DNA from: Alphaproteobacteria bacterium
GTDB taxonomy: Bacteria; Pseudomonadota; Alphaproteobacteria; Rs-D84
Direction: 5' to 3'
Length of the DNA stretch: 64,000 nucleotides
Assembly (NCBI GenBank): GCA_029059055.1
Contig: JAIDWS010000035.1
Span: forward strand, 8,670 to 72,669
Shown here in pieces: positions 9,704 to 60,612 of this stretch. Each line of letters begins with the position of its first letter. Position 1 is the stretch's first letter. The position numbers and the translations under genes were made by a program. Below the pieces are notes generated by a model, which saw only the letters and a program-made list of their open reading frames with translations, had not been told where the DNA came from and ran no database searches.

Positions 9704-9780
9704 CAGTTTCCGGTCCATACCGGAAGGAAGGGAGCCTGTCGGTCCATTCGGACCGACAGTTTTTTTATCATGACCATTTT

Positions 9781-9900
9781 ACTGGATTGCCACGCTGCGC
9801 TGACGCTTGCTCGCAATGACAAAGGAGGTGAAATTCCTGGAACTTTATCACCCTTGTCATTGCGAGCCATCGGCGAAGCAATCCAGTAAATAAATCCCCA
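9781..9900. repeat. Imperfect-palindromic repeat element of about 105-120 bp, copy 1 (actggattgc ... cgcaatgacaa ... ttgtcattgcga ... gcaatccagt, aataaatcccc tail)
   Basis: Nested inverted repeats; a second copy lies at 15560-15680. Confidence 0.7.
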
Positions 9901-9920
9901 CACCAATAAATTCAAATTCC

Positions 9921-9949
9921 TTGAAACTTCGCGTGGGATGCGATATACT
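9921..9949 (+). promoter_or_regulatory. Sigma70-like promoter TTGAAA-17-TATACT for leader A and its downstream gene
   Basis: Hexamers at 9921-9926 and 9944-9949, 17-bp spacer. Confidence 0.5.
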
Positions 9950-9955
9950 TTCCTT

Positions 9956-10125
9956 GCATTGGGAAACCGGTGTAGGCTTCAAAACCTAATAGTACTGTCA
10001 GTGATGACATTAAACTATCTCCAACCGTTGGTTGGGGGGCTGTGAATATATTGAATAAACAGCGCTATTGTACTAATAGTTTTGAACCTCCAACCACCCA
10101 AATGTTTTGGGTGGTGTTTTTAATA
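9956..10125 (+). ncRNA. Structured 5' leader / attenuator RNA A, with a possible 14-codon leader ORF at 9997-10041 and a terminator at 10089-10122
   Basis: Paralogous to 14259-14437. Conserved CCAACC..GGTTGG..GGTGAATA..GAATAAAC..TCCAACCACC blocks and a terminal hairpin with a T-run. Confidence 0.55.
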
Positions 10126-10147
10126 AAAAACCAAGGGAGTTTAAACT

Positions 10148-10375
10148 ATGGCAAAATTATTAATCGACGCCAATTACTATGGCAATATTATGCGATGCGC
10201 GCGACAACACCTGCGTATCAGCGTGGCCGATGCCGCCGCATTGTTGAAGATGAGCAAGAAAGATTACAAAAAATGCGAACGCGGGCATGATTTATTTGAC
10301 GAAGGTATCATGCGCCGATTTTACCACGGCGCATTTGCGATGCTGGTGATAAAGCGGGGTAAAAATAATCTGTGA
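10148..10375 (+). CDS. Small XRE-type HTH protein (75 aa) downstream of leader A
   Basis: RBS ccaagggag; HTH-like LRISVADAAALLKMSKKDYKKCERG. Confidence 0.45.
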   Translation: MAKLLIDANYYGNIMRCARQHLRISVADAAALLKMSKKDYKKCERGHDLFDEGIMRRFYHGAFAMLVIKRGKNNL

Positions 10376-10404
10376 CAGACCACCTGGCGGGGGCGTTTCC
10401 ACAT

Positions 10405-10434
10405 AAAAAACACCGGCAAATACCGGTGTTTTTT
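10405..10434. terminator. Bidirectional terminator, hairpin caccggcaaataccggtg (copy 2 of the family)
   Basis: Between convergent 10148-10375 (+) and ihfA (-). Confidence 0.6.
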
Positions 10435-10439
10435 GATGA

Positions 10440-10721
10440 TTATGCAACACGCTTTCTGAATTCGGTGCTGGGGCGGAATGTCGCCACGCGCCGCGCCGTT
10501 ATTAATGCCGGCGCACCCGTTTTCGGGTTGCGTCCCATACGGGGAGCTTTGTCCAAAATCTTGAAACTGCCCAGGCCCGCAAATTTGACTTCTTCGCCGT
10601 GAATCAATGATTCTTGGATTTCACCAAAAATCACATCCACCAATTTATACGAATCCGTCGTGGTCAGACCAAACTGTTCACGCAATTTGTTTGCAAAATC
10701 CATTCTGGTTATTGTTGCCAT
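10440..10721 (-). CDS. ihfA: Integration host factor subunit alpha
   Basis: GLGSFKILDKAPRMGRNPKTGAPALITARRVATF; conserved position downstream of fabH. Confidence 0.85.
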   Translation of the reverse strand: MATITRMDFANKLREQFGLTTTDSYKLVDVIFGEIQESLIHGEEVKFAGLGSFKILDKAPRMGRNPKTGAPALITARRVATFRPSTEFRKRVA

Positions 10722-11752: not shown

Positions 11753-11828
11753 GTCCCCATAGTTCAATTGGATAGAACAAATTCCTCCTAAGAATTAAAT
11801 ACAGGTTCGATTCCTGTTGGGGATACCA
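11753..11828 (+). tRNA. tRNA-Arg (anticodon CCT)
   Basis: Manual cloverleaf: acceptor GTCCCCA/TGGGGAT, D-arm GTTC..GAAC, anticodon loop CTCCTAA, T-arm ACAGG-TTCGATT-CCTGT, CCA end; 76 nt. Confidence 0.85.
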
Positions 11829-14223: not shown

Positions 14224-14252
14224 GTGACATTTTCCAAAACATGCGATATAAT
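14224..14252 (+). promoter_or_regulatory. Sigma70-like promoter GTGACA-17-TATAAT for leader B
   Basis: Hexamers at 14224-14229 and 14247-14252. Confidence 0.5.
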
Positions 14253-14258
14253 ATGCCC

Positions 14259-14437
14259 CGTGGTGGCCGATGGCACCATGGGGCTTTACAACCCGTTGAA
14301 CGCGTCCGCGTGACGATAAACATTCCAACCCATTTGGTTGGAGTGTGGTGAATACATCGAATAAACCGCGCAATTCGTTCAATTGTTGTAAAACTCCAAC
14401 CACCTGAAAAAAATCCGGTGGTTTTATTTTTTGTTCG
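14259..14437 (+). ncRNA. Structured 5' leader / attenuator RNA B (paralogue of 9956-10125), with a possible 13-codon leader ORF at 14307-14348 and a terminator at 14394-14437
   Basis: Same conserved blocks and the same hairpin competition as leader A. Confidence 0.55.
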
Positions 14438-14446
14438 GGGTTAACA

Positions 14447-15235
14447 ATGAAATTTGTTTTATGGACAATTGCGTGCGTGATGGGGATGCCGGCGGTGGCA
14501 TGGGGCGTATGCGATGGGGGAATGTATTTAAACGGCACCACATGCGAAAAATGCGTCGATGGGTATTATTGTCCCGGTGACGACACGCAACATCCATGTC
14601 CGACGGACACGACCGATTGGTACGGATTCGTATCAACACTGTACCCGGTGGACCGGGTGACGCAACAATCATGGCTGATGTCGTGGGACCCCGGTTCATC
14701 GACAAACGGGGCCATCTGGCCGGCGCATTGTTTCGCAGGTGTCTTTATATCCAGCCCATATGGGGAACTGTATATCGAAAGCTGGTATAACGGCACCAAT
14801 TACTGGAACGGCGAACAGGCGTTTTTGTGGTACCAGGCCAACCCCGGATATTATTTGGCCCAATATGTCGGGACGACATATCATGTCTGGTACCGATACG
14901 CCCGGCCATGCACAAATCTGCCGGAACATGCACATTATACCGGCGCCGGCACGCCCGATTCCGCCGATGGCACCATTCGGGATGCAAACGATTGCCCGTG
15001 GGAATGCGATGACGGATACGGCAATCATGACGGGGTGTGCGTGCCGTTGTGCGACGGCGTCAATCGGTTAAAGACCGGCAACGGTCGAACATTTAATTTA
15101 TACCCCATGGCATATACCACGCCGTCATTGCGCATTGAATATGGCGGCAAAACATGCTATGGCGTGTTAAAGTCGGGCGCGGCCGCATCAATCAATCTGC
15201 GATACAATAACCAAACGTATCACCTGTCTGACTAA
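14447..15235 (+). CDS. Secreted cysteine-rich protein (signal peptide; CEKCVDGYYCPG furin/TNFR-like Cys repeats; Trp/Tyr-rich core)
   Basis: Signal peptide MKFVLWTIACVMGMPAVAWG; Cys spacing reminiscent of eukaryotic Cys-rich repeats. Confidence 0.5.
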   Translation: MKFVLWTIACVMGMPAVAWGVCDGGMYLNGTTCEKCVDGYYCPGDDTQHPCPTDTTDWYGFVSTLYPVDRVTQQSWLMSWDPGSSTNGAIWPAHCFAGVFISSPYGELYIESWYNGTNYWNGEQAFLWYQANPGYYLAQYVGTTYHVWYRYARPCTNLPEHAHYTGAGTPDSADGTIRDANDCPWECDDGYGNHDGVCVPLCDGVNRLKTGNGRTFNLYPMAYTTPSLRIEYGGKTCYGVLKSGAAASINLRYNNQTYHLSD

Positions 15236-15559: not shown

Positions 15560-15680
15560 ACTGGATTGCTTCACTGCGTTCGCAATGACAATGGTGTTTA
15601 ATTTCCCGGCTACTTCATCCCCTTTGTCATTGCGAAGGAGTGAAACGACTGCGGCAATCCAGTGAATAAAATCCCCGCCA
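15560..15680. repeat. Imperfect-palindromic repeat element, copy 2
   Basis: Same termini (actggattgc/gcaatccagt) and core (cgcaatgacaa/ttgtcattgcga) as 9781-9900. Confidence 0.7.
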
Positions 15681-29370: not shown

Positions 29371-29444
29371 TGGCAGGGGCAGAAGGAATCGAACCCTCAT
29401 CCGCGGTTTTGGAGACCGATATTCTACCGTTGAACTATGCCCCT
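29371..29444 (-). tRNA. tRNA-Trp (anticodon CCA)
   Basis: Reverse complement AGGGGCATAGTTCAACGGTAGAATATCGGTCTCCAAAACCGCGGATGAGGGTTCGATTCCTTCTGCCCCTGCCA; 74 nt. Confidence 0.85.
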
Positions 29445-55139: not shown

Positions 55140-55213
55140 TGGGGTGTCGTCTAATGGTAGGACAAGAGATTTTGGTTCTCTTTATCATGGTTCGAATCCG
55201 TGCGCCCCAACCA
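55140..55213 (+). tRNA. tRNA-Gln (anticodon TTG)
   Basis: TGGGGTGTCGTCTAATGGTAGGACAAGAGATTTTGGTTCTCTTTATCATGGTTCGAATCCGTGCGCCCCAACCA; anticodon loop TTTTGGT. Confidence 0.8.
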
Positions 55214-55557: not shown

Positions 55558-56148
55558 ATGGCTGCAAAGACAATTTATATTTTTAGACATGGTCAAACAG
55601 ACTATAACGCCACAGGGCGCGTTATGGGTCGGTTGGATATACCATTGAACGAAACAGGGATACAACAGGCAACAGAACTGGCCAATAAAATGTCGGGCAT
55701 TGATATTAAGGCAATATATTCTTCGCCACTGTCACGTGCGATGCAAACAGCACAAATCGTGGCTAACAAAATCGGCGTAAAGATAACACCAAATGACGGG
55801 TTAATGGAACGACATAATGGGAATCTGCAAGGGCATATTGTTCATATAACAGATAATCCCGAACAATATCAGACCGACTATAAACAAACAGAACTTGTTT
55901 TGCCGGCAGAACAATTAAACGATGAAAATTGGCGACCCGAAGGCGGTGAATCACGAATAGAATGCTTTAAACGCGCCCAACAAACGATTACGGACATCAT
56001 AAAAACATCCCCTTATGACACAATTGCCATATCAACACATGGCGGACCAATGGTCGGGATATTGGATTTAGTTGGCGGCACATCAGAGCGCATTGGAAAC
56101 TGTGACTATGTAAAATTAACCTTTGATGGTAAAAAGTTAGAGAGATAA
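55558..56148 (+). CDS. Histidine phosphatase (phosphoglycerate-mutase-like) family protein
   Basis: IYIFRHGQTDYNATGR (RHG catalytic motif); ...STHGGPM... Confidence 0.75.
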   Translation: MAAKTIYIFRHGQTDYNATGRVMGRLDIPLNETGIQQATELANKMSGIDIKAIYSSPLSRAMQTAQIVANKIGVKITPNDGLMERHNGNLQGHIVHITDNPEQYQTDYKQTELVLPAEQLNDENWRPEGGESRIECFKRAQQTITDIIKTSPYDTIAISTHGGPMVGILDLVGGTSERIGNCDYVKLTFDGKKLER

Positions 56149-56254
56149 AATTTAACATAGGGCATCCGTTGCCCTATGTTTTTAATACAGACTTCACTGA
56201 TTCAATTTCATCTCTCATTTTGATTAAATCAGTTCGAAAATTGCTAGTCAGACA

Positions 56255-56343
56255 CAACCACAGTTAAAAAATCCGCCCACCGGGGCGGTTTTTAGTTGAA
56301 TCTGCAATCATCGTGCCAAGTTCGAATGTTTGATTTTCAAAAT
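56255..56343 (+). repeat. att-like direct repeat 3 (degenerate copy)
   Basis: aaccacagttaaaaaatccgcccaccggggcggttttt..tgcaatcatcg..agttcgaatgtttgattttcaaaat parallels copy 2. Confidence 0.55.
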
Positions 56344-56391
56344 CGTTAATTTTTGATAACTTTCGAACTTGTTTATGGTATAATATTCTAT

Positions 56392-57489
56392 ATGAAAACA
56401 GATAGTTATACAAAAGCCATAGACAATATTTATAATCGGATTGGCCATGCCGTAGTACAAGGTATACCAACCTTAGATCATATTATGGGTGTTGAAAATA
56501 TGTCTGAAGCAGATAAAATCTGGTACGAAGCATATAAAAAATACGGCAACCGAAATCACACATGGCAAGATTTTAGAGATATGTTTTATGGTGATGTTGA
56601 CGTTATGCAAAAGACAGTTGTACACTGGAAAACATGGGACGAAATAAATAACACGTTATCACAAGCATATGATTTAGTGCCAGAAATAAGAAGATTGATG
56701 AGAGAATATGGTATTAACTCTATCAATGTGACCAAATTAGAAGAATACAAACAATACCCTGATTTAGTATCAGTCTGCAAAAAATATCGTGAAATTGGTA
56801 GTATGGCGTATCAAAACTATTCTACATTTAATCCACAGATTGCAAAACTGGAAAAAGCGTTCGAAAAAAAATCGAAACTGATAGCGGTCGATGACAAAAA
56901 AGCAAAAATTGATTTAATTGTAGAATACCTAGAAAAAATGGATGAGTATGTAGATTTGCAAAATGGCGATTTTGTCGTTGCAGAACGCATAGAAACATAT
57001 CGTGAAATTATATTAAAAGACCAACAAATATTAAAGCTGGCAAAAGATTTTGATAAAATATCTGGCTCACAAAAGGTTGATTTAGCACGTATGATTTTAA
57101 ACAAAAGTGCAAAAATTACAGGCACACCAACAGGCCAAGTTATTCAAGATGACGCCCCGGCTGGCCCGCATGTCCTAACCGGTAATCAAGTCGCCGGATA
57201 TGTTGAGAATCGTAAAGAATTTTTATTCAGAGGTGATGATTTAACGACCCTATGGACCTTTTTGAAATATTTGGTCCATGAAGATGCTCATAGAATAGAT
57301 TACTATAATGCAGAATATGGGATGATTGGAACGCAACTTATGAAATTTGTGAATGATAATTATGTTAATAATGCAGACATAGATGTTGAATTGTATCGTA
57401 AATTTGCCACAGAACAAAGTTCATATTATCTTGATCGCACTACGGCTTCTGCTTTAGAATATGCAATAATGCATCAATCTCGTGGCTAA
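56392..57489 (+). CDS. Hypothetical protein (366 aa) in the AT-rich island
   Basis: AT-rich; no recognisable motif. Confidence 0.4.
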   Translation: MKTDSYTKAIDNIYNRIGHAVVQGIPTLDHIMGVENMSEADKIWYEAYKKYGNRNHTWQDFRDMFYGDVDVMQKTVVHWKTWDEINNTLSQAYDLVPEIRRLMREYGINSINVTKLEEYKQYPDLVSVCKKYREIGSMAYQNYSTFNPQIAKLEKAFEKKSKLIAVDDKKAKIDLIVEYLEKMDEYVDLQNGDFVVAERIETYREIILKDQQILKLAKDFDKISGSQKVDLARMILNKSAKITGTPTGQVIQDDAPAGPHVLTGNQVAGYVENRKEFLFRGDDLTTLWTFLKYLVHEDAHRIDYYNAEYGMIGTQLMKFVNDNYVNNADIDVELYRKFATEQSSYYLDRTTASALEYAIMHQSRG

Positions 57490-57621
57490 TCTTAATTAAA
57501 TCAATTCAACTACGCATAGGTAAGCCAAACGTAGTGTCGGCGAACCGTCAGGAATACCGCACTGAAGCAATACAGGACTGAATAGAAGTGTTTCTAGCGT
57601 TTTTGTTCATCGAAGAAGTAA

Positions 57622-58829
57622 TTAATCATAAAACACAATTAACTGCTCAAGAGATATATTAACACCTGCTTTTTGTAATTCTCTGATATTGGTTTCATAA
57701 AGCTTTGTTAATATATCGCGTTTTTCATTATCTGTTGCCAAATGTACCTGCCGATGACAGACAGGACACAGAGCAACGATATTTTCAACAATATCAATAT
57801 TTACATCAAACTCATTGCGTTTACAAAACGGTATCAAGTGATGCCCTTCTACAAATGGCATATTGTTAGCTTTGGCTGTAAATGTTCTATGACGCGGATT
57901 CACTTCACACATATAACGACTGCGCAATTTTCGCGCTTCTTTAACATTTGGATTGGCATGTAATAACGTATCTACATCGTCATCATTGTCTAATCCTAAA
58001 GCTAATCGTTTCTTTAATAATTCTTGCTCTGCAATTCGCCCATCTTGATAGTCTATCGCTAATTTGTTTATCTGTAATGCTCTGTTATAATTCTTATATT
58101 CCTTTACATTAGATAAATCTTGTTTATCAAAATACAAACCATCTATCTGTGTAAGATGCTTCCCGGTTTCCTTTTCATAAAAAGACCTTTTAAAGGGATA
58201 CAAGAATCCATATTCAGACACAAAAATTTTTAGCGGTATTCTGAACTGGTCGTTCTTTGCCTTACTATTTTTTTGCAATACTCGTGGATTAAAATTAAAA
58301 AATTGTCCAGTCATATTAGACAGTGTCATATATTTACGCCTGGCTAAATTTGGATATTTTTTCTTTTCCCAATCAACAGTTACCAGTTTTCTACTAAAAT
58401 CCAGTGAACAACGAGCATTAAATAAACCAGAAACAAAATATCGAATACATTCGTTTGAAAAATCCATTGTAGCTTTTTCAATATACCCATAAATGCGCGC
58501 CCTGCCTATTTCAGTAGTATCATCTAAACTATTAGTTTCAGTAAATTTGACAGAACAAACCCAAGATGTCTTATTAGACGAACAATCTATATCATCAGAT
58601 AATATCGCAGTTCCTTTGATAAAGTCTGCAAGAACTTGCCTGTTTGGCTCATTTAATTGCGTGTATTCATTATCACTAAAATTCTTGCGTATTCTAGTGC
58701 CTGTCCTTCCAGACGAATATGCCAACACATAACCATTTTTTACAATTGGCCAACCATAAACCATGCCCAAAAAGAATGCATATTTAGGATTTTTTTTGGA
58801 TTGTTCAAGTAATTCATTAAATGTCATTA
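57622..58829 (-). CDS. HNH-nuclease-domain protein, putative restriction endonuclease
   Basis: C-terminal ...FVEGHHLIPF...NIVALCPVCHRQVHL (HNH, Zn-binding Cys). Adjacent to two DNA methyltransferases. Confidence 0.55.
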
Positions 58830-59557
58830 AAAATCCTTTTATAAGCCATGTTATAATATGTGTCGTCCAATTCAATACCAATAAAGTTACGATTTTGTTT
58901 TATGCACGCAATTCCTGTGCTACCGCTTCCCATAAATGGGTCCAAAACCGTATTGTCTTTGTTTGTAAATATCTTGACCAACTCTTCCATCAAAAATACC
59001 GGCTTTTGAGTTGGATGACCTAACCGTTCTTTACCAGATGGACACGGACATTTTATTTCTGGCCTTAAATAGCTATCAGTAGAATTGTTAAACGTCCATT
59101 TTGACTTTCCTTTAACACACCATATAGCCAATTCATAGTCGGCCACAAAACGACTATCCATATTACGTGGCATAGGATTTGGTTTTAACCATCGTATCAA
59201 GTCTTTTACGGCATAACCTTTGGCTTCTAAATATTTTGCAATATTTCCTATATTCAAAAAACTATTAAAAACAATAATATTACCACCGTCTTTTAACAAT
59301 TTATCCGCAACATCAAGCCACGTAAATAAATCAAAGCCCTTATCCCAGGTTCCAAAATCAATCCCTTGCCGTTTAGCATTTTTCATCGTGGAAAAATTAT
59401 TGTCTTTTGAAATATTGTATGGTGGGTCAGTTATTATTGCATCGACTTTTATTTTATCTTTAATCAGACCAGCCATGACATTCACGCAATCACCGTGTAA
59501 TAATTGTACGGATTCTCTTTGAAACCAATCAGTAAAATATTGTTCTTTTTTAGTCAT
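58817..59557 (-). CDS. DNA methyltransferase (N6-adenine/N4-cytosine class, DPPY motif)
   Basis: AIITDPPYN (motif IV) precedes the SAM-binding motif: beta-class amino-methyltransferase. Confidence 0.8.
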   Translation of the reverse strand: MTKKEQYFTDWFQRESVQLLHGDCVNVMAGLIKDKIKVDAIITDPPYNISKDNNFSTMKNAKRQGIDFGTWDKGFDLFTWLDVADKLLKDGGNIIVFNSFLNIGNIAKYLEAKGYAVKDLIRWLKPNPMPRNMDSRFVADYELAIWCVKGKSKWTFNNSTDSYLRPEIKCPCPSGKERLGHPTQKPVFLMEELVKIFTNKDNTVLDPFMGSGSTGIACIKQNRNFIGIELDDTYYNMAYKRIFNDI

Positions 59558-60612
59558 TGTCAGCCTTAATTATTTCCAAAGCAATTGCTTTCGCTAATTT
59601 TGGGGGCACAGCATTGCCAATTTGTTTTATTACAGATGATTTATTCCCATAAAAAATATAGGCGTCGGGAAACGATTGAATCCTTGCCGCTTCGCGTGGG
59701 GTGATAGAACGATTTAAGAACGGATGATTATTCTGTCCATTAGACGGTGTATCAAATCTCGTCACAATCGTTGGCGATGGCTTATCTTTCTCTAATCTGC
59801 ACCAGGTTCCACCGAATGTTGATTTAGTTAGATGTTCCTTTGGTAAAAATTCTTTACCTTTTTCAGGCGGAATCATTGCTAGTCTCTGTATCGCAACATC
59901 TGAATGTTTTGTCGCCATATGGTTGTATAACTTCTTGCTATTTGCTCTCAATTCTTTTTGATATTTAGATTCAGACTTGTTTTTATAATCAGCAACAAAT
60001 TCCCCTTCGCCAGATTCTAAATAGGCCAAATCAGATATCGCATCCCAAACCGAAACAATTTTCTGTTTTGTATCCATTTTTGGTATTTTTGCTTTACCAT
60101 CACGCGAACCTATAAATACGGCTCTACGTCTAGTTTGCGGAACACCAAAATATCTTGCATCCAAAATACCATAATCAACTTTATATCCCTGTTCCCGTGC
60201 TTCTTTTAAAATCAAATCTAAGAAATAGCCATCAGCGGTCCCCAACAAGGCAGCAACATTCTCAATAACGAAATACTTAGGCTTGAAAAAAGAAGTGTAT
60301 TTAAAGAATTCTTTAAACAGATAATTTCTTTCGTCATCTTTACCGAGACATTTTCCACGAGTTGAAAAACCCTGGCAAGGCGGCCCTCCAACTATAATAT
60401 CAATCGGCTGTTTAAGGGCTTTTGCAACTGCTTTTATGTCTAGTTTGCAAATATCACCAATGAAAACTTTTGTGTTAGGATTGTTTTTAGCATAAGAATC
60501 TGCAATAGACGGCTCTAATTCTAACGCACCAACTAGATTAAAACAGCCAGTTTGTTCAAAACCAAGACTCAGCCCACCAACGCCTGCGAATAATTCTAGC
60601 AGATTTAACTTT
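59550..60612 (-). CDS. DNA (cytosine-5)-methyltransferase
   Basis: LELFAGVGG (motif I), GGPPCQGFS (motif IV), ENV (motif VI). Real start MRKLNLLELF... Confidence 0.85.

Follow-up and report, generated by a model that had tools for sequence, protein, structure and literature searches.

A large family of candidate RNA switches preceding XRE-type regulator and secreted-protein genes in Rs-D84 Alphaproteobacteria

We analyzed a stretch of 64,000 nucleotides (nt) of contig JAIDWS010000035.1 (hereafter the window), assigned to an alphaproteobacterium of the Rs-D84 lineage, which harbors two paralogous leader RNAs, designated copy A (9921–10121) and copy B (14224–14433). By sequence comparison, both belong to what appears to be a large, lineage-specific and previously undescribed family of RNA switches of approximately 160 nt, which constitutes a new family within a known kind of device, the attenuator leaders; our literature search found no paper describing this leader RNA. 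We consider it probable that the leader is a default-off, cis-acting, bistable transcription attenuator, which would be turned on by a factor that stabilizes a three-way RNA junction.

Both copies possess a common σ70-type promoter, a conserved core and an intrinsic terminator. The initial annotation had recognized them as two structured, paralogous leaders with their own promoters and a common order of elements, and this description holds at both loci. The order comprises CCAACC, a loop and GGTTGG (10021–10036 in copy A and 14325–14341 in copy B), a GAATA...GAATAA stretch found as a loop sequence (GAATATATTGAATAA, 10044–10058, and GAATACATCGAATAA, 14350–14364, respectively), the sequence CTCCAACCACC (10088–10098 and 14394–14404) and, in each copy, a terminator formed by a hairpin and a T-run, with the second CTCCAACC leading into the terminator hairpin. 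One wording had to be corrected, as copy A reads CTGTGAATA and not GGTGAATA. The conserved element is indeed shared, but the similarity reaches further in the 5′ direction than was noted and includes a long-range helix. That helix is specific to each copy and had been overlooked, as had a hairpin with a 15-nt loop (P2), a further hairpin (P3), the three-way junction and the size of the family. Within the window, the 19-nt motif GTGAATAYATYGAATAAAC occurs exactly twice against 0.08 occurrences expected, and a covariance model of the core assigns 82.6 bits to copy A and 77.3 bits to copy B, while the rest of the window scores 20 bits or less. An unfiltered search with this model gave these two copies only. 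The single-sequence folds of copies A and B are far more stable than those of shuffled sequences (z = −4.8 and −6.7, respectively).

To gather further members, one genome per species was scanned with the pattern TTGGTTGG-N17-GAATAA-N20-45-CTCCAACC, which matched at least 114 genomic stretches. Among the matches listed, all but two were gut metagenome-assembled genomes (MAGs) labeled Candidatus Enterousia, Alphaproteobacteria or Rickettsiales. Candidatus Enterousia, of the order Rs-D84, is an uncultured gut lineage with genomes below 1 Mb, devoid of the tricarboxylic acid cycle and of respiration and with few recognizable transporters (PMC12306168). The leader-HTH (helix-turn-helix) unit of the window resembles those of these MAGs, which points to an Enterousia-like source for the window. 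The covariance model, trained on 111 cores, detected 133 copies in approximately 0.8 Mb of fetched sequence, around 30 of which lie outside the search pattern. Individual MAGs contain at least 4–7 copies, counting only the small sampled part of each genome. Viral contigs of IMG/VR yielded three matches only. The one that was inspected (L121, 12104–13164) looks like an ordinary leader-gene unit, with the leader followed by an open reading frame (ORF) of 316 amino acids (aa) that has a hydrophobic, signal-peptide-like N-terminus. A phage origin of the family was thus rejected. The L121 unit is positioned downstream of two long ORFs on the opposite strand (273 and 369 aa), and its contig could be a prophage or a misclassified genomic island.

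From 5′ to 3′, family members display a −10 box TATAAT (often with a good −35 box before it), a hairpin (P0), a G-run, the segment h1, the stretch CC(C/U)N, the segment h2, an optional small hairpin, an A-rich linker, seg1 (CUCCAAC), a loop, seg2 (UUGGUUGGAGG), P2, P3 with h2′ as its loop, h1′, seg3 and the terminator. The 5′ arm of the terminator starts with the last 3–4 nt of seg3, and a strong ribosome-binding site (RBS) and the gene are located approximately 20–30 nt beyond. In the 117-member alignment, the −10 TATAAT is kept at the equivalent distance. In what we call the ON fold, seg2 and seg3 form the helix P1, which closes a three-way junction with P2 and P3, and the 5′ region can form PX, a small local hairpin in which the G-run pairs with the CC stretch and h1 occupies the loop. 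In the alternative OFF fold, seg2 pairs with seg1 and a long-range helix is formed by h1:h1′ and h2:h2′.

The ON fold is strongly supported by covariation. In a model-based alignment of 130 distinct sequences, which by its nature leans to the model's own structure, 96.9% of the cells of this fold are paired and 14 of the 19 pairs show compensatory changes; the observed values were reached by none of 500 shuffles, and sliding the 3′ partners by 1–3 columns lowered pairing to only 30–49%. Compensatory changes were found in all five pairs of the P2 stem (99.3% of cells paired), in all five pairs of the P3 stem and in four of the nine pairs of P1. The ninth P1 pair, which the search pattern does not impose, is G:C in 92 sequences and U:A in 29. 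PX likewise covaries throughout the family (GAGG/CCUC, CAGG/CCUG, UAGG/CCUA), and G:U pairs are common in the stems. The changes in P1 support the downstream pairing of GGTTGG proposed in the initial annotation. RNAalifold applied to a MAFFT alignment of the core had recovered P1 only, since the P3 loop was misaligned, and was replaced by a structure given by hand and then by the covariance-model alignment.

As h2 and the optional hairpin resisted column-wise alignment with MAFFT, the long-range helix of the OFF fold was judged from the best-matching runs in cognate, non-cognate and shuffled combinations instead. Perfect runs of at least 14 bp over h1 and h2 were present in 86% of cognate combinations, but only in 8% of non-cognate and 6% of shuffled ones, and the duplex energy was −18.0 kcal/mol for cognate against −13.4 kcal/mol for non-cognate strands (p = 1e-30). 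The strands themselves are highly diverse (55 different sequences of h1 and 102 of h2). The h2 strand matched h2′ over at least 8 bp in 67.6% of self comparisons, 5.6% of non-self comparisons within a genome and 6.1% of comparisons between genomes. The long-range helices are therefore private to each copy. Cross-talk of paralogues in trans through h2:h2′ was also considered and discarded, as the within-genome values show no enrichment over those between genomes.

The two folds exclude each other: h2′ fills the whole P3 loop and its flanks, and with a single nucleotide between h1′ and seg3, formation of the long-range helix rules out that of P1. Six divergent copies have GGUCAGGAG, GGCAGGAGG, GGAUUGGAGG or GGUUGGGAG as their seg2, and in each of them both seg1 and seg3 are altered to match. 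As the three segments change together, the idea that GGTTGG of seg2 alternates between the upstream CCAACC (seg1) and the CCAACC at the base of the terminator (seg3), put forward in the initial annotation, proves correct. Taken together, the sequence comparisons show that the ON and OFF folds are mutually exclusive and that both are under selection. The minimum-free-energy fold is OFF in 94 of 96 members, and forcing seg2:seg3 pairing costs 10.2 kcal/mol on average. The terminator stem takes up 3–4 nt of seg3 in 62 of the 81 members that could be evaluated. Freed of its 5′ half, the core folds alone into the three-way junction, and P1 and the terminator compete for ACC. Several natural copies resemble such a core. 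In these "core-only" copies (L028, 2806–3047; L059, 6203–6272; L060, 444–511; L068, 3580–3738), the promoter directly precedes seg2 and both the long-range strand and a full seg1 are missing; L068 contains two back-to-back cores with no terminator between them.

According to the mechanism that we favor, each locus forms an independent unit, consisting of a σ70-type promoter, a structured leader of approximately 150–170 nt, an intrinsic terminator and a gene. In the OFF fold, the presumed ground state, the copy-specific long-range helix (G-run:CUCC, h1:h1′ and h2:h2′) would enclose the seg1:seg2 hairpin and P2. The free seg3 would then give its last 3–4 nt (ACC or AACC) to the terminator stem, so that transcription would stop and the gene would stay silent. 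In the ON fold, seg2 (GGUUGGAGG) and seg3 (CCUCCAACC) would close the P1-P2-P3 junction while the 5′ strand folds back as PX; the terminator would lose the pairs adjoining its U-tract, and RNA polymerase would read into the gene. We infer from established knowledge of intrinsic terminators that the ON fold causes read-through; a factor acting in trans would select this fold. Since OFF is favored by around 10 kcal/mol, ON must be either stabilized or kinetically trapped.

As to what the factor recognizes, we commit to two parts, namely the P2 loop of 15 nt, which carries two (G)AAUA half-sites, and the end of P1 formed by GGAGG:CCUCC. The half-sites and GGAGG:CCUCC are near-constant even in the divergent copies, while the sequences of the junction strands and of the P3 loop are freely variable. 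Such a distribution fits protein binding somewhat better than it fits a metabolite pocket, and an RNA-binding protein appears somewhat more likely than a small molecule. The conservation of GGAGG/CCUCC may, however, merely reflect that each segment has two or three pairing partners. A second internal promoter in the DNA of the P2 loop (TTGAAT ... TATAGT) was also considered and rejected, as its spacer would be the P3 loop, the length of which is too variable for a fixed −35/−10 arrangement.

Several points weigh against this mechanism. Promoter use, termination and read-through are deduced from comparative and thermodynamic evidence, and all sequences come from MAGs or metagenome contigs. Moreover, the starting members were gathered with a pattern that fixes seg2, seg3 and part of the P2 loop, a bias that the model matches ease only partly. 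The ON fold requires seg3, which is transcribed only around 20 nt before the terminator is completed, and has to displace a pre-formed seg1:seg2 hairpin, which leaves a narrow kinetic window; nested-fold energies, in addition, place ON approximately 10 kcal/mol above OFF. The downstream genes indicate no metabolite, though they are compatible with a signaling molecule, and the near-total lack of conserved nucleotides in the strands of the three-way junction is atypical of metabolite aptamers. Finally, the tandem arrays described below and the "core-only" copies would equally fit an RNA product with its own function.

The genetic context of the leaders is well defined. A Shine-Dalgarno (SD) sequence and an ORF follow on the same strand within 140 nt in 101 of the 133 copies, with the gene starting approximately 40–60 nt after seg3. 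Another 20 copies precede a further copy, and for most of the other 12 the gene that follows has a weaker RBS. In total, 121 of the 133 copies are co-oriented with the following gene or copy. Among 92 downstream proteins searched against Pfam, HTH_31 was found in 30, HTH_19 in 22 and HTH_3 in 15. Around 40% of the downstream genes encode XRE-type helix-turn-helix (HTH) proteins of 60–80 aa, about one-third of the downstream proteins carry signal-peptide-like N-termini, and the remainder are mostly unannotated, apart from a few other genes (ABC exporter, UvrD helicase, GT2, PLD). A short form of the leader is associated with HTH genes and a long form with genes for secreted proteins. As the leader subtype tracks the gene class, leader and gene duplicate together.

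We also observed tandem arrays of 3–5 complete promoter-leader-terminator units (L067, 3961–4986 on the reverse strand; L078, 7042–7833; L101, 4278–4828) with a period of approximately 241 nt. Their units keep a remnant RBS and no ORF, and a small HTH gene follows the last unit only. The L067 array comprises five units.

These features have to be weighed against other explanations. The units could primarily be genes for a stable trans-acting small RNA (sRNA), either of approximately 150–170 nt or as a processed junction core of around 95 nt, with the position upstream of a gene being secondary. Each copy is indeed equipped with a strong promoter of its own, a hairpin at the 5′ end and a strong terminator, and the predicted ground state terminates, so a short RNA should be the main product. 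The 20 of 133 copies that stand in tandem arrays with no gene between them, among them the five L067 units with their 241-nt period, the "core-only" copies with a promoter directly before seg2 and the outline of the core, which recalls the 88-nt sRNA-Xcc1, all point in the same direction. Yet, 101 of the 133 copies lie 40–60 nt upstream of a same-strand SD and ORF, which leaves no room for another promoter, and leader subtypes go along with the class of gene that follows. The P2 loop is conserved and unpaired; its complements in approximately 1 Mb of related sequence are essentially the elements themselves (149 matches, about one per element). In the stable fold, every SD-like or anti-SD-like segment is taken up by base pairing. 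Gene placement, the subtype link, the private helices and the lack of further P2-loop targets in the sequence searched favor a cis-acting device, and we regard an sRNA function alone as improbable; the terminated leader may nevertheless have a second function in trans. A still less probable alternative reverses the polarity: a ligand or protein would stabilize the OFF multi-branch anti-antiterminator, as PyrR does, and read-through would take place without the factor. The OFF structure has an aptamer-like appearance, with a sequence-variable, covarying closing helix, the conserved junction stretches AAAAUA, GG and CRC and conserved hairpins, and pyr attenuators employ the same anti-antiterminator logic. 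However, OFF is already around 10 kcal/mol more stable with no factor present (94 of 96 members), so a stabilizing factor would add little, and the "core-only" copies, devoid of the 5′ half, keep the junction and the terminator, which makes the junction the common denominator of the family.

Ribosome-mediated attenuation, the mechanism favored by the initial annotation, assumes that translation of a leader peptide through seg1 and seg2 chooses between 2:3 and 3:4 pairing. The short leader ORFs are present as described (13–14 codons in both window copies, ending at the UGA after seg2), and the four-segment topology is that of trpL-type attenuators. Across 117 members, however, the leader peptide is conserved neither in presence nor in frame, start codon or SD: no ORF reads into seg2 in 20 members, the ORFs are spread over all three frames (96, 73 and 60), only 40 members have an ATG and only 12 an SD-like sequence, and in short-form members the relevant region is free of start codons. 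The likeness of the two window peptides stems from the conservation of the pairing segments at the nucleotide level. Ribosome-mediated attenuation is therefore very unlikely. Hardly any credence can be given to a selfish or structural DNA repeat with no RNA function, similar to repetitive extragenic palindromic (REP) sequences or miniature inverted-repeat transposable elements. The element is multi-copy, the leader-HTH unit is found in varied intergenic contexts and is duplicated within one genome, and it adjoins a genuine palindromic repeat of 110 nt. But the signal is strand-specific (14–20 bits on the reverse strand against 77–83 bits on the forward strand), the co-orientation with the following gene or copy is nearly general (121 of 133), promoter and terminator stand in functional order, and compensatory changes together with G:U pairs keep the RNA helices while the sequences diverge.

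With respect to known systems, searches of Rfam 15 supported the initial annotation, which could not match the leaders to any riboswitch class: at gathering thresholds only tRNAs pass in the whole window, and no family reached its threshold in the two leaders (searched at E ≤ 10) or in eight other loci (at E ≤ 1). The closest approach was that of copy A to RF02221, sRNA-Xcc1, at 31.0 bits (E = 0.0011 in a 351-nt search), below the gathering score of 53; copy B gave no match to this family at E ≤ 10 and the eight other loci none at E ≤ 1. sRNA-Xcc1 is an 88-nt sRNA of Xanthomonas campestris, described as free-standing (PMC2996969). It resembles the leader core in having a G-rich 9-bp P1 around two hairpins, followed by ACCC and a U-run, and copy A aligns to model positions 1–87. 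This match hinges on the unusual GGGGGG of copy A, and the likeness is one of outline only.

The attenuators of the Escherichia coli trp, his and leu operons share with the leaders the overlapping pairings 1:2, 2:3 and 3:4, in which 3:4 is the intrinsic terminator and 2:3 removes the terminator base, as well as the position between the promoter and the regulated gene. In contrast to them, the leader family has no conserved leader peptide, start codon or SD, a copy-specific long-range helix locks 1:2, and 2:3 closes a junction with two conserved hairpins. The pyr/PyrR system of Bacillus subtilis and, more loosely, TRAP, ANTAR and BglG/RAT are alike in their terminator, antiterminator and anti-antiterminator logic, in a conserved loop as a candidate protein site and in several copies per genome answering one factor, as is proposed here. 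They differ in that the predicted ground state of the leaders is already the anti-antiterminator, and no PyrR, TRAP, ANTAR or RAT match (motif or Rfam) was found up to E = 10 in both leaders and up to E = 1 in the eight loci. In turn, riboswitches of the ON type with a three-way junction, such as the pbuE adenine riboswitch, have a P1 that closes the junction and whose 3′ strand overlaps the terminator (by ACC or AACC in the leaders), a thermodynamically favored terminator fold, so that switching would be kinetic, and strong covariation. The leaders also possess, as metabolite riboswitches do, a covariation-backed domain in the 5′ leader and an expression platform whose alternative pairing draws on the presumed sensor domain. 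Yet, their conservation resides in one apical loop and P1 rather than in the junction, the sequences of J3/1 and of the P3 loop are unconstrained, the 5′ part adds an upstream "anti-aptamer" strand and the downstream genes hint at no ligand. The leader family thus belongs to none of the trp, pyr and ON-riboswitch families, as it shows no conserved leader peptide, known protein-binding motif or Rfam match.

A further parallel comes from phages. In the immunity region of phage P4, seqB of the CI RNA is complementary to seqA and seqC, and in the c4 RNA of phages P1 and P7, too, a central segment is complementary to two near-identical flanks and governs termination. Unlike in the leader family, the central segment of P4 is processed into an RNA that works in trans, and its pairing promotes termination. 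The leaders show no sequence similarity to these phage RNAs, and the C4 family gave no Rfam match in the window or in the leaders. What is unusual about the leaders is the combination of private "lock" helices, a promoter for each copy, tandem arrays and a copy number that is very high for a genome below 1 Mb.

All parts of the two window copies lie on the forward strand. In copy A, the promoter (9921–9949) consists of −35 TTGAAA (9921–9926), a 17-nt spacer and −10 TATACT (9944–9949), matching 10 of 12 consensus positions, and would start transcription near 9956. A small inverted repeat TCGCGTGGGATGCGA (9929–9943) is located between the two boxes and is kept in L001–L006; it could be an operator, possibly for the downstream HTH protein. 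Hairpin P0 (9957–9972, CAUUGG-GAAA-CCGGUG), the equivalents of which in other members have different sequences, is followed by the X strand (9973–9995) with PX (UAGG 9973–9976 pairing with CCUA 9985–9988), h1 (9978–9985) and h2 (9987–9995). In the predicted fold, 9978–9995 pairs with 10070–10086 as the long-range helix, which encloses the first hairpin. The optional hairpin (9997–10008, GUCA-GUGA-UGAC) is restricted to "long-form" members. Seg1 (10019–10026, CUCCAACC) is the anti-antiterminator strand and the partner of seg2 in the OFF fold; seg2 (10030–10038, GGUUGGGGG) can pair with seg1 (OFF) or with seg3 (ON, helix P1). P2 (10039–10063) exposes the conserved 15-nt loop GAAUAUAUUGAAUAA (10044–10058), and P3 (10065–10079, CUAUU/AAUAG) holds h2′ (10070–10078) in its loop and 3′ side and thereby excludes h2:h2′. 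The segment h1′ (10079–10086, GUUUUGAA) would pair with h1 in the OFF fold and form the single-stranded junction J3/1 in the ON fold. Seg3 (10087–10095, CCUCCAACC) would serve as the 3′ strand of P1 in the ON fold, whereas in the OFF fold its CUCC would pair with the 5′ G-run and its ACC would enter the terminator. The latter (10093–10121) is composed of ACCACCCAAA-UGU-UUUGGGUGGU followed by GUUUUU, overlaps seg3 by 3 nt and was called by a simple terminator scan at 10093–10115.

Downstream of copy A, an RBS (AAGGGAG, 10133–10139) precedes the gene of the 75-aa HTH protein (10148–10375), and the gap between terminator and gene is too short for a separate promoter. The XRE-type assignment made in the initial annotation is weak for this protein taken alone (HTH_31, E = 0.0045, below the Pfam cut-off), but it holds across the gene family; searches with the 75-aa protein against NCBIfam and against PDB sequences gave no match.

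The promoter of copy B (14224–14252) matches 11 of 12 consensus positions, with −35 GTGACA, a 17-nt spacer and −10 TATAAT (14247–14252). The 3′ strand of its P0 (14255–14284) holds the G-run GGGG (14280–14283), and the X strand (14285–14302) contains h1 (UUUACAAC, 14285–14292) and h2 (GUUGAACG, 14295–14302); the predicted long-range helix pairs 14285–14302 with 14376–14392 and encloses the first hairpin. The optional hairpin (14303–14315, CGUC-CGCGU-GACG), seg1 (14322–14330, AUUCCAACC) and seg2 (14336–14344, GGUUGGAGU) follow, the ninth base of seg2 being a U that pairs with A14393, compared with G:C in copy A. P2 (14345–14369) has the loop GAAUACAUCGAAUAA (14350–14364), and P3 (14371–14385, CAAUU/AAUUG) is accompanied by h2′ (14376–14383) and h1′ (14385–14392). 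Seg3 and the terminator occupy 14393–14433, with seg3 ACUCCAACC at 14393–14401, the hairpin AACCACCUG...CCGGUGGUU at 14398–14423 and a T-rich run up to 14433. The simple scan missed this terminator because its loop is 8 nt long, although the hairpin is plain in both sequence and fold. The downstream gene (14447–15235) encodes a protein of 262 aa that contains many cysteines and has an N-terminus resembling a signal peptide, in agreement with the secreted, cysteine-rich product described in the initial annotation.

The sequence of the 75-aa HTH protein is found in identical form in many public assemblies and in at least three genomic contexts. Its unit, consisting of a palindrome, promoter, leader, HTH gene and terminator (9778–10440 in the window; also in L001–L006, L030 and L105), is placed between housekeeping genes, at rpmB/parC, between a tRNA-synthetase gene and cvpA or, as in the window, upstream of fabH, and it occurs twice in one MAG. 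Across assemblies, the promoter and the HTH coding sequence are near-invariant, while the arms of the leader helices differ, with matching changes on both strands, which suggests recombination between paralogous leaders. The palindrome is a nested repeat of approximately 110 nt, TTTACTGGATTGC...CTCGCAATGACAA...TTGTCATTGCGAG...GCAATCCAGTAAA, present in the window at 9778–9890 and 15560–15650 with 79% identity, just upstream of the copy A promoter and downstream of the copy B gene, and it also stands before the leader-HTH unit in L001–L006. It may be a REP- or RPE-like element or may have a role in moving the leader-HTH unit.

The gene content of the window (fabH, plsX, mraZ, an M13 peptidase gene and a merR-family gene) is that of a bacterial chromosome. 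Rfam identifies tRNA genes at 11753–11825 (+), 29374–29444 (−) and 55140–55210 (+), the first of which lies between the two leader units. The G+C content drops to 0.34–0.35 at 56001–60000, compared with around 0.50 elsewhere in the window, and this region may be a foreign island.

More tentatively, and as one possibility among others, the invariant P1-P2-P3 junction could form the sensing part of a new riboswitch or riboregulator class, responding to a signaling molecule or a dedicated RNA-binding protein, which would be present in perhaps 10–25 copies per genome of less than 1 Mb and would act as the main on-switch for surface and secreted proteins and XRE regulators. If so, the private long-range helices would be built-in locks that hold each copy off and insulate it from its paralogues. 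For RNA biology, the value of the family lies in its two exclusive covarying folds, in covariation that extends over three segments and in "lock" helices that are orthogonal between paralogues, and it provides a new orphan candidate for the discovery of a ligand or binding protein. In Rs-D84, small XRE-type regulators together with secreted or surface proteins would make up a regulon that spans the lineage and is defined by the leaders, and that would give a handle on the interactions of the organism with its surroundings. These regulator-poor, possibly host- or partner-dependent bacteria would then rely on one RNA device.

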